Origin: a virus
Taxonomy: Duplodnaviria; Heunggongvirae; Uroviricota; Caudoviricetes
Strand: one strand, 5' to 3'
IMG/VR virus record: IMGVR_UViG_2778261641_000002
Location: 1 to 7,271 of that record
DNA length: 7,271 nucleotides
This document shows, one piece after another, positions 2,940 to 7,271 of this stretch (position 1 is its first letter; the number at the start of each line of letters is the position of its first letter). The notes below the pieces were generated by a model. It saw only the letters and a list, made by a program, of their open reading frames with translations. It did no database searches and was not told the origin of the DNA. The translations under genes and the position numbers were made by a program.

Positions 2940-3302
2940 CTAAATGGCTAATTGCATGTCAAGGCTTTTAACAGCAACATGCTTAACTTTCTCAACACGT
3001 TTACGCATTTTGAAAGCATTTTGCATCGGCTGGTATAAAACAAATAATGACGCTTTCAGGATGTCGTCAATTTCGTTTCTACAGGTTGCCAGTGAAGGTT
3101 TTCTCCATCCCTCGCCACCACGTCCACACATCTTGCGTGGCTTTGCAGTCGCGTGATAGTAGGATGCAATTGCTCGCTTAGATGAACCATGAGCGTAGTA
3201 GCTGAGGAGGATGCCAAAGGCTTTCTTGTCAATGTACATGACGGAATCGACGACCTGAGAAATCAACATTCCATCATCATCATTACACATTGGCCTTGTC
3301 AT
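2940..3302 (-). CDS. Q-like late antiterminator (phage-21/QuuD-type), probably N-terminally truncated; 120 aa from the ATG at 3302
   Basis: Protein [46 protein letters not shown]... aligns, from memory, with the middle of the 127-aa DLP12 QuuD-type Q protein (…[41 protein letters not shown]…), whose first ~40 residues have no counterpart here. The in-frame upstream region hits a stop 14 codons above the ATG. The position, immediately upstream of the late promoter and lysis cassette, is where Q sits in lambdoid phages. Confidence 0.4.
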
Positions 3303-4477
3303 AACTCTTCCCGATAGAGCATGATGATTGAGTCTGCGTCCTGTTCAATGCTTCCTGAATCACGCAAATCTGCGTTTGTCGGGCGTTTGTTTGGTCGCTT
3401 TTCAACATCGCGCGAAAGCTGACTCAGGGAGATAACCGGTGTTTTCAGGTCTTTCGCCATCGCCTTCAGGCTTCCGGAGATGTGGGCAATTGCGAGGTCG
3501 TTGCGGTCTGCTTTCGGCTTCTCAATCAGGCCAAGATAATCCGCCATGATGAGTGAGAGGTTTGGATTTTCCTGTTTGTGCCGTTCTGCGATTGAGCGTA
3601 TTTCTTCGACCGATAATCGCGAGGCATCGACTACCCATACATCCAAATCTGCAAGCTGACTCATGCCGTTAGCAACGCGCGCCCAGCCTTCGTCATCCAT
3701 CGCTGCAGGATTTCGCAGCACACTAACCGACATCCTCCCGGCGTTGGCAATGCTTCGCTCTGCAATCTGCAATGCGCTCATTTCCATTGAGAAAATCAAT
3801 ACCCCGCGCCGGACGTCAGAACCAGGAATAACGCGGCTTGCAACGCCTTCGGCAATCTTCAGCGCCAGTTCGGTTTTCCCCATACCAGGACGAGCAGCGA
3901 TTATCACCAGGTCTTCCGCGTTCATCCCTCCGGTGATGGCATCAAGTTCTTCAATTCCGGTCTTCAGGGTATCGGACTCTTCTCCGTTCCTCAGACGCCT
4001 GTCAAGCGTGTCAGTGTAGTCAGTAATGATTTCCCCTAACCGTACAGGTTTAACCTCGTCACGGGGCTTTCTGATGGCTGAAAGACGCTTTACAAGCTCA
4101 TCCATCGCCTGACTCGATGCGTCGATGGTTCCGCTCTGAATTGGTTCACGCATTTCATCCATGATTTCCAGCACCAGACGGCGGTGATAGTTATCCGCGA
4201 CCATTCCGGCATATCCCTTCAGGTTTGCGGCACTCGGGCAGTTTTTGCTGGTCATCAGGATTGAGGTGAAATGCTCCTCTCCGCACGCCTCGGCAACCAT
4301 CAGCGCGTCGATTAGGTTTCTGTTTCTCGCCTGCTTGCGGATAACCTCGAAGGCTCTCCGGTAGAGCGGAATTGAAAACGCTTCCGGCTCCAGCGTTGCC
4401 AGAACGTCGCTGGCGGTTGGTGTTAATCCACCAATCAGCAGGCCACCGATAACGCTCGCTTCGATATCCTGTCTCAT
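3299..4477 (-). CDS. DnaB-type replicative helicase (P22 gene 12-like), 392 aa; appears to lack about 45-50 C-terminal residues
   Basis: N-terminus [13 protein letters not shown] resembles E. coli DnaB IEAEQSVLGGLML. Walker [12 protein letters not shown] is present. The C-terminal region [46 protein letters not shown] aligns with Dna[50 protein letters not shown]..., but the ORF stops right after YREEL, whereas DnaB continues for about 49 residues including the GKQRNGP motif. The start ATG overlaps the O stop codon (ATGA). Confidence 0.85.
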
Positions 4478-5421
4478 GCAATCCCCCTGTCTGCAAACTT
4501 CCCTTCCCGTACTCCAGTTAACGAATCTTCCCTCAGCAGGTAATCAAAATCTGCCGTCCAGCCAGTGTCGTTGTCTCCGAAGTAAAACGGCTTGGCCTGA
4601 TGTACAAACGCCCTGACATACGCTCTGAAACCGTCCACGCTTGGCGTTTTCAGTTGCGGGATGATTTTCTTCAGGCGGCGTTTGCGTTTCTCGTTGACCG
4701 CAACAGCGTGTGGCAGTCTGTCACCGACTTCGGTGTTGTAGGCGTTCAGGAAGGATTCGTAGTCGATTCGTTCTGCCTTGCGACGTTCAGGTTTAACCTG
4801 CCCATCGCCGCCCCCATTGGGGGGTAGGGGGGTATTATTTATATTCTTGTTAATACCTTCTTGTTCATGATGTGCGGTTGTTTGTGCGGCTTCATGTGCG
4901 CTTTCATGTGCGGCATGTACGCTGAAAGCCGCGCCATTACTGGCTTCATCATGTGCGGCATCATGTGCGGTTGTTTGTGCGGCTTCATGTGCGGGTGAAT
5001 TGTCCATTTTTTGAGCGTATTCATGGTAATTTGTGATGGTGATCACACGACCTTTTTGCTTCTCTCCATCAATGGAGATCATCCCCTCTTTCACAAAAAC
5101 CTGAAGCATCCGCTCAACCTGATCACGGCTTGCCGGCTTGCCATGCCTGTCGCATAACTGAAGACCTAAATCAGCTGCTGTCACAACCAGTTGACCGGGT
5201 TGCAGATGCCATTCATGACCTTTGAAATTCGCTTTGTATGGCTTTCTGGCGGCATTCAGGAGAAGGTTTTCCCACAGGGTGCGAAGATAAACATCTTTCG
5301 CCCATGACTGTTTCAGAATGCTCCGGTACAACGGAATGTAACCAGTTTTCTGGTTCTCCATCCTGTTGCTCCTGCGCTCGTGTGCGGCGCTGAAATCGTA
5401 GATTTTTGCTGTATTGCTCAT
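4474..5421 (-). CDS. O: Replication initiator, lambda O-like N-terminus, 315 aa
   Basis: N-terminus [10 protein letters not shown] resembles lambda O MTNTAKILNF. The middle of the gene encodes a His/Ala-rich repeat ([41 protein letters not shown]) that coincides with a DNA iteron array, as for ori-lambda inside O. The C-terminal domain (…[29 protein letters not shown]) does not resemble lambda O, consistent with partnering a DnaB-type helicase rather than lambda P. Confidence 0.85.
4819..4860. other. AT-rich tract plus G6-TA-G6 element adjacent to the iterons (putative origin unwinding region)
   Basis: TATTATTTATATTCTTGTTAATA (4833-4855) lies directly downstream of the iterons in the O-gene sense, matching the iterons-then-AT-rich layout of ori-lambda. 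It is flanked by GGGGGGTAGGGGGG (4819-4832) and the near-palindrome CCCCCATTGGGGG (4811-4823). Confidence 0.5.
4866..4994. repeat. Iteron array of the replication origin inside the O gene: eight TGTGCGG cores at exact 12-bp spacing in two clusters of four
   Basis: Plus-strand TGTGCGG (or TGTGCGC) begins at 4871, 4883, 4895, 4907 and at 4952, 4964, 4976, 4988, with one degenerate copy TGTACGC at 4917. A 31-bp perfect direct repeat ATGTGCGGTTGTTTGTGCGGCTTCATGTGCG occurs at 4869-4899 and 4961-4991. Confidence 0.7.
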
Positions 5422-5423
5422 AA

Positions 5424-5696
5424 CTACCTGCCTTGACGAAAGACCTTAAGAACATCGTTAAACTGACTTACGGATATGTCTTCTTTGAGAAGCTTTTTCA
5501 GAAATGCGTTTGGAATTAACGTATATCCCTCCTCTTTTGGTAGAGACTGGAGCAACGCCCTCGCCTCAGCCTTCAGAAGCTCAGTTCTGGCAACTTTCAC
5601 AAAAGAGATTTGAGTTCTTTCATCAATGGAACGAAGGAAGCGCAAACGCTTAGCTTCTTTGTGTGTATCAGGTGGATTAAAGCCTTTGTTTCGCAT
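5424..5696 (-). CDS. Hypothetical protein, 90 aa, between cII and O
   Basis: The ORF-track frame 5424..5864, started at the internal ATG at 5696, gives MRNKGFNPPDTHKEAKRLRFLRSIDERTQISFVKVARTELLKAEARALLQSLPKEEGYTLIPNAFLKKLLKEDISVSQFNDVLKVFRQGR. A strong ribosome-binding site (GAGGTAA) lies 5-10 nt upstream. The gene is tightly packed: 22 nt after the cII stop, and its stop is 2 nt before the O start. I do not recognise the family. Confidence 0.5.
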   Translation of the reverse strand: MRNKGFNPPDTHKEAKRLRFLRSIDERTQISFVKVARTELLKAEARALLQSLPKEEGYTLIPNAFLKKLLKEDISVSQFNDVLKVFRQGR

Positions 5697-5718
5697 ATAA
5701 TTACCTCGTTGGATGTTG

Positions 5719-6018
5719 TTAAAAATCCATCTGGATTTGTTCAGAACGCTCGGTCTTGCACACCGGGCGTTTTTTATTGGTGATTTCATCAAGCGCATAC
5801 TTAAAAGCCCTGCTAATCGGACTGATGTCTGATGCCATTCCGAAAGCACACAAGACCGAAGCAATAAATCTCCAGTCCGTTCTGCTTATCTTCGATTCAT
5901 GACAGCCAATCATCTTTGCCAGACCGCGCTGGGTAAGCGTTGACAGGTTGATGAGTAAATCTGTTTCTGCGCGATCAACGTCGCGCTGTGATAGTTTGCT
6001 GTAACTTGTTTGTTCCAT
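5719..6018 (-). CDS. cII: cII-like transcriptional activator (lysogeny establishment), 99 aa
   Basis: The C-terminal region ...DEITNKKRPVCKTERSEQIQMDF matches lambda cII ...ILTNKKRPAATERSEQIQMEF as I recall it. A helix-turn-helix-like segment LTQRGLAKMIGCHESKISRTDWRF is present. The gene is immediately downstream of cro, as in lambda. Confidence 0.85.
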   Translation of the reverse strand: MEQTSYSKLSQRDVDRAETDLLINLSTLTQRGLAKMIGCHESKISRTDWRFIASVLCAFGMASDISPISRAFKYALDEITNKKRPVCKTERSEQIQMDF

Positions 6019-6103
6019 TTCTTAAGATTTCCAGTAGTGAATGGTTAGTTGAAAGGTATGCGTGGAAACGCATATGGCCTTAGTTGGTCAGATATCTTGG
6101 GAC

Positions 6104-6149
6104 TCGCTTTGTCAGCGACGTAGGACGAATGTCCATTGTGAAAATAGCG
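6104..6149 (-). promoter_or_regulatory. Candidate nutR-like site (boxA-like plus boxB-like hairpin) between cro and cII
   Basis: The minus-strand transcript reads CCGCUAUUUUCACAAUGGACAUUCGUCCUACG-UCGCU-GACAA-AGCGA. CGCUAUUUU resembles boxA (CGCUCUUA); UCGCU-GACAA-AGCGA is a 5-bp stem with a purine-rich pentaloop like lambda boxB (GCCCU-GAAAA-AGGGC). The position, directly 3' of cro, matches lambda nutR. The boxA-boxB spacing (about 22 nt) is longer than in lambda. Confidence 0.25.
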
Positions 6150-6156
6150 GTGTTAC

Positions 6157-6384
6157 TTATGCAGCCAGAAGGTTCTTTTTGCTTATTTCAAGCATTTCGC
6201 TTGCTTGATATTTGCCACCAGAAATCTCTTCGATTTTTGATGCGTATTTCGTTTTCCCAAAAAACTCAGTCTTAGGGAGGAAGCCGTTTTTGAGCCACTT
6301 ATAGACAGCCCTTTCGCTAACTCCACAAGCCTTCGCAACTTCAGGGATGCCGACACCTTTAATCGGCTCATCAAGATTTTGCAT
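6157..6384 (-). CDS. cro: Cro-like helix-turn-helix repressor, 75 aa from the ATG at 6384
   Basis: Protein MQNLDEPIKGVGIPEVAKACGVSERAVYKWLKNGFLPK... has a clear helix-turn-helix (IPEVAKACGVSERAVYKWLKNG). It is transcribed divergently from cI across a 78-bp operator region. AAGGA lies 7-8 nt upstream of the 6384 ATG; the ORF-track start at 6417 has no ribosome-binding site. Confidence 0.7.
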   Translation of the reverse strand: MQNLDEPIKGVGIPEVAKACGVSERAVYKWLKNGFLPKTEFFGKTKYASKIEEISGGKYQASEMLEISKKNLLAA

Positions 6385-6399
6385 AGGGATATCCTTTTT

Positions 6400-6461
6400 C
6401 GTACTTTCAGTACGCATTATGATTGAACTGAAAGTTTTTGCAAGTGCTTTAGTATCGTACT
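6400..6461. promoter_or_regulatory. Divergent immunity-region control region: three candidate operators plus pR (for cro) and pRM-like (for cI) promoter elements
   Basis: Inverted-repeat sites: CGTACtttcaGTACG (6400-6414), AACTGAAAGTT (6426-6436, which shares ACTTTCAGT in opposite orientation with the first), and AGTAtcgTACT (6451-6461, which shares CGTACT). Minus-strand pR candidate: -35 TTGCAA (6438-6443), 16-bp spacer, -10 CATAAT (6416-6421). Plus-strand TAGTAT (6450-6455) ends 7 nt before the cI ATG, and there is no Shine-Dalgarno sequence. Confidence 0.4.
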
Positions 6462-6462
6462 C

Positions 6463-7170
6463 ATGGTTCAGAATGAAAAAGTGCGCAAAGAATTCGCCCA
6501 GCGGCTAGCGCAAGCCTGTAAAGAAGCTGGTCTTGATGAACATGGTAGGGGAATGGCTATAGCCCGTGCCCTTTCTCTTTCGTCCAAAGGCGTTAGCAAA
6601 TGGTTTAATGCTGAGTCTTTACCGCGTCAGGAAAAAATGAATGCGCTTGCGAAATTTCTAAACGTTGATGTTGTTTGGCTTCAGCACGGCACTTCGTTAA
6701 ATGGAGCGAATGATGAAGATACTCTTTCATTTGTTGGCAAATTAAAAAAAGGGTTAGTGCGCGTGGTTGGTGAGGCAATTCTTGGTGTTGATGGTGCCAT
6801 CGAGATGACCGAAGAGCGCGATGGGTGGCTCAAGATTTATAGCGATGATCCAGATGCCTTTGGTCTTCGTGTGAAAGGAGACAGCATGTGGCCTAGAATA
6901 AAATCAGGAGAATATGTACTCATTGAGCCTAACACCAAAGTATTCCCGGGTGATGAGGTGTTTGTCAGAACCGTTGAAGGACACAACATGATCAAAGTTC
7001 TTGGCTATGACAGAGACGGAGAATACCAGTTTACAAGCATCAACCAGGACCATAGGCCAATAACGTTGCCTTATCATCAAGTAGCAAAGGTGGAGTATGT
7101 GGCTGGTATTCTGAAGCAATCTCGCCATCTGGATGACATCGAGGCAAGGGAGTGGCTGAAAAGTTCGTGA
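6463..7170 (+). CDS. cI: cI-type prophage repressor (N-terminal helix-turn-helix plus C-terminal LexA/S24-like autopeptidase domain), 235 aa
   Basis: The N-terminus (…RALSLSSKGVSKWFNAESLPRQEKMNALAKFLNV…) looks like a helix-turn-helix DNA-binding domain. The C-terminal domain has GDSMWP (catalytic Ser) and MIKVLG with the Lys exactly 37 residues after the Ser, the same spacing as LexA Ser119/Lys156. The gene is divergent from cro. Confidence 0.9.
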   Translation: MVQNEKVRKEFAQRLAQACKEAGLDEHGRGMAIARALSLSSKGVSKWFNAESLPRQEKMNALAKFLNVDVVWLQHGTSLNGANDEDTLSFVGKLKKGLVRVVGEAILGVDGAIEMTEERDGWLKIYSDDPDAFGLRVKGDSMWPRIKSGEYVLIEPNTKVFPGDEVFVRTVEGHNMIKVLGYDRDGEYQFTSINQDHRPITLPYHQVAKVEYVAGILKQSRHLDDIEAREWLKSS

Positions 7171-7271
7171 CTTCATCGTCACATAGCTGATAGCCAGTGG
7201 CCTGAAGAGACGTTTGGGTGATAGGAAGTAAGTTTTATGTTGACGGCACAGTCAACTTGGCATAGATTAAT

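Follow-up and report, generated by a model that had tools for sequence, protein, structure and literature searches.

The minus-strand element at positions 6104-6149 is, with a probability of about 0.9, nutR, the rightward N-utilisation site, of a lambdoid prophage of the H-19B/933W/HK97 type. The window, i.e., the whole stretch of 7,271 nt that was analyzed, belongs to a lambdoid prophage, of which it covers the early-right and lysis region, and is read mostly on the minus strand (Table 1). The identification draws on identity to a characterized site, position, hairpin structure, conservation and co-variation with N, all of which are presented here; the action of N and Rho on this sequence is taken from the literature.

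All 46 nt of the site are identical in H-19B (AF034975), 933W and phi24B. In 933W (NC_000924), exactly the equivalent of 6104-6149 is annotated as "nutR; putative N-utilization rightward", and the feature annotated as "nutR; putative N-utilization site" in phi24B (HM208303) maps exactly onto the same positions. The proposal of the initial annotation, that a possible nutR lies directly downstream of cro, is thereby supported. HK97 differs from the 46-nt site in a single base within boxA (CGCUCUUUU), and the boxB sequence (UCGCUGACAAAGCGA) is identical in H-19B, 933W, phi24B and HK97. The surrounding intergenic region (∼142 nt) is 97.2% identical to that of H-19B and 97% identical to that of HK97, while the immunity region is ∼97.8% identical to those of Min27, phi24B and other 933W-like Stx phages. 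A 65-mer spanning the site was present in 435 of 5426 complete E. coli genomes, and the site was also found in many phages.

The location of the site in the cro-cII gap is shared by H-19B, 933W, phi24B and HK97, and the window encodes the same Cro and CI proteins as 933W. The long spacer with a dyad that characterizes the H-19B/933W/HK97 nut subclass was likewise found (22 nt, containing GGAC-AUUC-GUCC), together with sequence identity to the type sites. In contrast to these phages, the window carries four substitutions in the part of the 142-nt intergenic region outside the site, constitutes another mosaic with CUS-3/P22-like replication and lysis genes, lacks stx and has undergone deletion of the nin region.

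The H-19B nutR/tR1 region is an experimentally used cassette for N-dependent, Rho-dependent antitermination, in which overlapping binding sites for N (nut) and Rho (rut) precede the Rho-dependent terminator tR1 (PMC3526286). N-dependent read-through has been published for an H-19B sequence identical to the site in the window, and the H-19B nutR contains two hairpins (PMC3526286). N together with NusA protects the spacer and boxB of H-19B nutR, with no protection at boxA, and the R15C, R15P and R18P mutants of the arginine-rich motif (ARM) of H-19B N (12-RSRRRER-18) lose antitermination (PMC3526286). The nutR element of the window is therefore already known, and its novelty is low because it has been both annotated and experimentally studied as nutR.

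Table 1. Features of the early-right region of the window, in order along the pR transcript after the divergent cI gene.
Feature	Position	Strand	Basis or remark
cI repressor, 933W type	6463..7170	+	Pfam HTH_3 and Peptidase_S24
pR promoter, TTGCAA-16-CATAAT	6416..6443	-	Promoter scan; transcribes cro and nutR
cro, 75 aa	6157..6384	-	ORF; directly upstream of the site on the pR transcript
cro stop codon, TAA	6159-6157	-	Sequence read
boxA-like element, CGCUAUUUU (RNA) / CGCTATTTT (DNA)	6149-6141	-	7 nt past the cro stop codon
Spacer, CACAATGGACATTCGTCCTACG, 22 nt	6140-6119	-	Between the boxA-like element and boxB
Spacer hairpin, GGAC-AUUC-GUCC	6134-6123	-	In the MFE and centroid folds
boxB hairpin, UCGCU-GACAA-AGCGA, N-binding element	6118-6104	-	Five Watson-Crick pairs and a pentaloop
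tR1 zone, between boxB and the cII start codon	6019..6103	-	Rho-dependent termination, by homology to H-19B
Hairpin, UAUGCGU-UUCC-ACGCAUA	6074-6057	-	Centroid fold; inside the tR1 zone
cII	5719..6018	-	Pfam Phage_CII, E = 6e-34
Remaining genes past cII: O-like, DnaB-type helicase, Q fragment, holin/lysozyme/Rz, Rha-like			

The order of the elements, pR, cro, the site and cII, all on the minus strand, is that of a nut site. The coordinates of cro, whose product gave helix-turn-helix matches in Pfam, agree with the annotated cro genes of 933W, phi24B and a relative (L004) whose sequence matches window positions 5000-7217 at 100% identity, and the predicted pR coincides with the promoter annotated in phi24B and 933W. 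The first gene that relies on read-through of tR1 for its expression is cII. On the minus strand, the gap between cro and cII (138-142 nt) begins with TAA-GTAACAC-CGCTATTTT-CACAATGGACATTCGTCCTACG-TCGCTGACAAAGCGA, so that the boxA-like string, the interval of ∼22 nt and the 5-bp stem with a GACAA pentaloop that had been described initially are all present. The last of these, UCGCU-GACAA-AGCGA, has the short G+C-rich stem and the GNRA-like, purine-rich loop of a boxB, and a conserved CUACG in the spacer abuts it on the 5' side. The hexamer ACAUUC, which had been likened to the lambda nutR spacer, is indeed contained in that spacer (CACATTCCA in DNA, CACAUUCCA in RNA); in the window, ACATTC is part of the spacer hairpin GGAC-AUUC-GUCC, a structure unremarked in the initial annotation.

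Two further features of the neighboring genes were observed. On the plus strand at 5743-5773, opposite cII and within its 3' end, lies a strong intrinsic-terminator-like hairpin with a T run, in the position and orientation of the terminator of the lambda oop antisense RNA. The O-like gene contains two 35-bp direct repeats (4866-4900 and 4959-4993), which correspond to a HEAAQTTAH segment that recurs in the encoded peptide; they are candidates for origin iterons, as in lambda O.

If the site is nutR, a gene for N should lie beyond the cI end of the window, as the initial annotation had argued, and a matching nutL should accompany it. Both were sought in related genomes and were found in every locus bearing this nutR that extended far enough: past cI and pL, each of these relatives carries a nutL ending in CUACG-GCGCUGACAAAGCGC, in which CUACG precedes the boxB GCGCUGACAAAGCGC as it does in nutR, followed by a 127-aa ORF starting MTRRTQFKGNSRSRRRERLKAKALANG, which is the H-19B-type N (Pfam N_peptide). 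A protein identical to the CI of the window is encoded by many prophages, most of which have a 127-aa N_peptide gene downstream. The nutL boxB GCGCUGACAAAGCGC and an intact 127-aa N are present in L004, and also in two relatives (L015 and L016) that share the unusual cI-distal junction of the window. The predicted direction of N was thus correct, in that nutL and N lie 0.9-3.3 kb past cI in the relatives; N does not follow directly at the end of the window, being separated from it by accessory (moron) DNA and OL/pL. From these arrangements we infer that an H-19B-type N gene is encoded in this genome, outside the window; nutL, and then an ORF beginning MTRRTQFKGNSRSRRRERLKAKA, would be expected beyond position 7271. 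A phmmer search with H-19B N against PDB sequences gave no real relative.

A promoter-like sequence just after cI (TTGACG-17-TAGATT, 7240-7268, plus strand) was considered as pL and rejected, since in the relatives OL/pL lie 0.6-1.1 kb further on and since the sequence is followed in relatives with the same junction (L003, L015 and L016) by a terminator-like hairpin (AGCCCAG..CTGGGCT and a T run) and then by an NYN-domain accessory gene, either intact or decayed. The stretch at 7218-7271 (plus strand) lacks the DUF3024 gene that succeeds cI in 933W and phi24B.

In three complete E. coli genomes the intact 127-aa ORF was left unannotated by PGAP (L004, 8507-8890; L015, 5112-5495; L016, 5103-5486). 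For L015 and L016, annotation is confined to a 69-nt fragment immediately after the N stop codon; this partial protein resembles the tail of a P22-type N and is labeled "regulator" in the former and "antitermination protein" in the latter. In L004, the 69-nt partial "antitermination protein" spans only the last codons of N itself.

Conservation of the hairpin was examined across relatives, including 120 further viral contigs recovered by an exact scan for the spacer hairpin. The hairpin is kept, as the nutR reading had implied, and its loop co-varies with the ARM of N. Among these nutR copies the UCGCU/AGCGA stem does not change, whereas three loops occur (GACAA, GAAA and GCAA) and the boxA region is variable. 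The type of loop matched the ARM class of N in 110 of 110 loci, representing at least 13 cro types. All 58 loci with a GACAA loop, which cover at least 6 cro types, encode an N with an ARM of the RRRERLKAKAL type; all 51 loci with a GAAA loop, which cover at least 7 cro types, encode one with RRRARRANLQ or RRRERRAALQ; and the sole GCAA locus that includes N (1 cro type) has RRRERRAHMQ.

The stem was also compared across nutL and nutR variants, in an alignment with the letter N as placeholder in the unpaired loop column (pentaloop versus tetraloop). It was 100% paired throughout, with U-A, A-U, C-G and G-C at the outer pair and C-G and G-C at the second pair. The covariation score of the stem was reached by no shuffle, and controls slid along the alignment were near zero; as the stem is invariant within the nutR copies, this covariation derives solely from the comparison of nutL with nutR, in a set whose nutL hairpins were selected because they pair and in which many loci are close relatives.

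The correspondence with N extends to sites of other types. Two loci with the same cro and cI (L003 and L012) have a P22-type nutR (CGCTCTTTA-9 nt-ACCGCCGACAACGCGGT), and P22-type N and P22-type nutL occur in exactly these two, where nutR is P22-type. Loci with identical cII (L024-L033) carry a GAAA or P22-type cassette upstream, again matching their N.

Several observations concern the mobility and variety of these sites. In the cro-cII gaps of L003 (5518-5623), L012 (9589-9694), L021 and L024-L033, nutR appears as an exchangeable cassette: one and the same cro or cII is joined to H-19B-, VT2-Sakai- or P22-type nutR, always matching the N on the far side of the immunity region. Where boxB naturally has a true GNRA tetraloop (GAAA or GCAA), the accompanying ARM sequence is a distinct one. 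Salmonella phage 118970_sal4 (L022) combines an H-19B-like ARM with a nutR boxB that has a U·G closing pair (UCGCU-GACAA-GGCGA); its nutL position, ∼175 nt upstream of N, is occupied by GCUCC-GUCAA-CGAGC, in which two C residues face each other beside the loop (C·C), reminiscent of the C-GACAA-C of P22 nutR.

The likelihood of a fortuitous arrangement was estimated from 3000 dinucleotide-preserving shuffles of the window. The 5-bp-stem/GACAA hairpin occurs once in the window, both strands included, against an expectation of 0.022 per shuffled window, and for a GANAA hairpin preceded by the motif CGCTNTTT at a distance of no more than 45 nt the expectation was 0.0003 per shuffled window. The combination of boxA-like element and boxB is not due to chance. 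In the ViennaRNA centroid structure, the RNA between cro and cII forms three hairpins, namely the spacer hairpin, boxB and UAUGCGU-UUCC-ACGCAUA. The folding z-score of this RNA (-1.42) is by itself not significant, and is uninformative because the stems are so short. A scan of the whole window against Rfam at E <= 1 yielded no match, and Rfam holds no curated nut family. The shortness of the 5-bp stem and the non-significant z-score are what could be said for a functionless hairpin that happens to lie beside a chance boxA-like string. Set against the expectation of 0.0003 composites per window, the base-for-base conservation in the 435 E. coli genomes and many phages and the co-variation of the hairpin with N, this explanation has a negligible probability; it is effectively refuted by the shuffles, the N co-variation and the stem covariation taken together.

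A role of the hairpin region mainly in Rho loading at tR1 (rut), rather than in antitermination, would accord with the finding that Rho alone also protects the spacer of H-19B nutR, where rut overlaps nut (PMC3526286), and with the annotation of lambda, in which rutA and rutB flank boxB. Such a role would, however, be a second, overlapping one rather than an alternative, and would leave unexplained why the loop type tracks the ARM class of N and why a hairpin with an identical loop stands downstream of pL. As a replacement for the nutR reading it is very unlikely.

As nutR, the site would act by the classical mechanism, for which the support is best. RNA polymerase starting from pR would transcribe cro and then nutR, whereupon the boxB UCGCU-GACAA-AGCGA would be bound by the N-terminal ARM (..NSRSRRRERLKAKALA..) of the 127-aa N produced from the pL operon, and NusA would bind the adjoining spacer. 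The N-NusA-RNA complex would remain tethered to the polymerase and hinder Rho, whose loading site overlaps nutR. The polymerase would thus become resistant to tR1 and downstream terminators, allowing cII, O, P and later genes to be expressed. The small spacer hairpin would cut the effective distance between the boxA-like element and boxB.

The boxA-like element stands in the canonical position, as initially described, but its match to the consensus is poor and variable and it is probably not needed. In the window, CGCUAUUUU agrees with the P22 nutR boxA consensus CGCUCUUUA at 7 of 9 positions and with the lambda boxA CGCUCUUA at 6 of 8. At the same position, relatives have CGCTCTTTT, CGCTCTTTGTAACAA or no boxA (CACTTCCAACAA). 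H-19B N reportedly requires NusA and neither NusB nor S10, and the H-19B boxA is said to be dispensable, whereas lambda N is said to require NusB/S10 and boxA. The boxA-like element is probably dispensable in the H-19B subclass. The spacer dyad has reportedly been regarded as a "reducer" that draws its flanks together. In the nutL spacers of the same phages the stems are kept (GAUUC/GAAUC and UCACC/GGUGA), while the loops are variable.

The VT2-Sakai/epsilon34-type nutR has the spacer hairpin, the CUACG and the UCGCU/AGCGA stem in common with the window, as well as the tR1 region that follows. In contrast, its loop is GAAA (or GCAA), its boxA is CGCUCUUUGUAACAA or absent, and the N of this type is shorter, with the ARM RRRARRANLQ or RRRERRAALQ.

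The lambda nutR (CGCUCUUA-CACAUUCCA-GCCCUGAAAAAGGGC) resembles the window in the order boxA-spacer-boxB, in its location right after cro and ahead of the Rho-dependent tR1, in the ACAUUC of its spacer and in a 5-bp stem with a purine-rich pentaloop. It differs in its GAAAA loop, its stem GCCCU/AGGGC and a 9-nt spacer without a hairpin, and lambda N has an ARM of a class other than the H-19B type. A lambda-type boxB, GCCCUGAAAAAGGGC with its GAAAA loop, was not found at the site in the window.

P22 shares with the window the GACAA pentaloop and the inner stem CGCU/AGCG, and both types of N belong to Pfam N_peptide. Moreover, the P22-type nutL boxB GCGCUGACAAAGCGC is identical to the H-19B-type nutL boxB; the N of P22 is the gene 24 protein. 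The P22 nutR is, however, unlike that of the window, with the consensus boxA CGCUCUUUA, a 9-nt spacer without a hairpin and the boxB ACCGCCGACAACGCGGU, and the ARM of P22 N (GNAKTRRHERRRKLAIERD) is unlike that of the H-19B type. When compared with P22 nutR as such, the site in the window departs from it in boxA, spacer length and stem, and only the GACAA loop is common to both.

Equivalents of the 6057-6074 hairpin with changed stems occupy the corresponding position in epsilon34 (UAUGCGC/GCGCAUA, annotated as a putative tR1), P22 (GCGCAU/AUGCGC) and lambda (GUAUGCA/UGCAUAC), which suggests that the hairpin is a structural element conserved within the tR1 region.

The prophage itself is defective, because the nin region, the end of the helicase gene and the start of Q have been lost. 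Relative to CUS-3, ∼3.3 kb are missing, including the whole nin region (ninA-ninH, rus and roi). The helicase ORF (3299-4477, minus strand) lacks ∼64 C-terminal codons, the Q ORF (2940-3302, minus strand) lacks ∼48 N-terminal codons, and the Pfam matches to both are shortened accordingly. At the helicase-Q junction (3295-3313) the breakpoints share 19 bp.

These losses bear on whether the site, although nutR by descent, is a non-functional relic in this defective prophage, with N absent, disrupted or supplied in trans. The deletion of ∼3.3 kb, encompassing the nin region, the N-terminus of Q and the C-terminus of the helicase, speaks for such decay, as does the disruption of the N region by an IS element in some relatives (L005). 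Against this, the 46-nt site does not differ from its functional H-19B counterpart, no damage is seen in cro, cI, cII, pR or the operators, and N is intact in the relatives that have the same cI-distal junction as the window. On balance a non-functional relic is unlikely, though of the alternatives weighed here it is the one with appreciable probability. The nutR of this prophage may have survived as a well-preserved relic, or its use may depend on N from elsewhere. Given the missing nin region and the incomplete helicase gene and Q, a role in productive lytic growth has possibly been lost. The deletion leaves the identity of the element as nutR unchanged.

A further scenario, which we regard as improbable, starts from the retention of an intact 933W-type immunity region and an H-19B-type nutR in a prophage without its nin terminator region and part of Q. 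An Stx phage of the same type, resident in the same cell, might then supply in trans both the N that drives this prophage and the repressor that silences it. N-modified transcription from pR would in that case cross the truncated P/Q junction directly and reach the lysis genes, and a toxin phage and a cryptic prophage would be linked by regulatory cross-talk.

Beyond correct annotation, the significance of the element is slight: the early right operon would be placed under antitermination by an H-19B-class N, with a partner N of the 127-aa type. The prediction of the partner is useful because PGAP leaves the 127-aa N unannotated in several complete genomes. As the same nutR-N pair governs early transcription in Shiga-toxin phages, any prophage that carries it shares its regulatory specificity with them.
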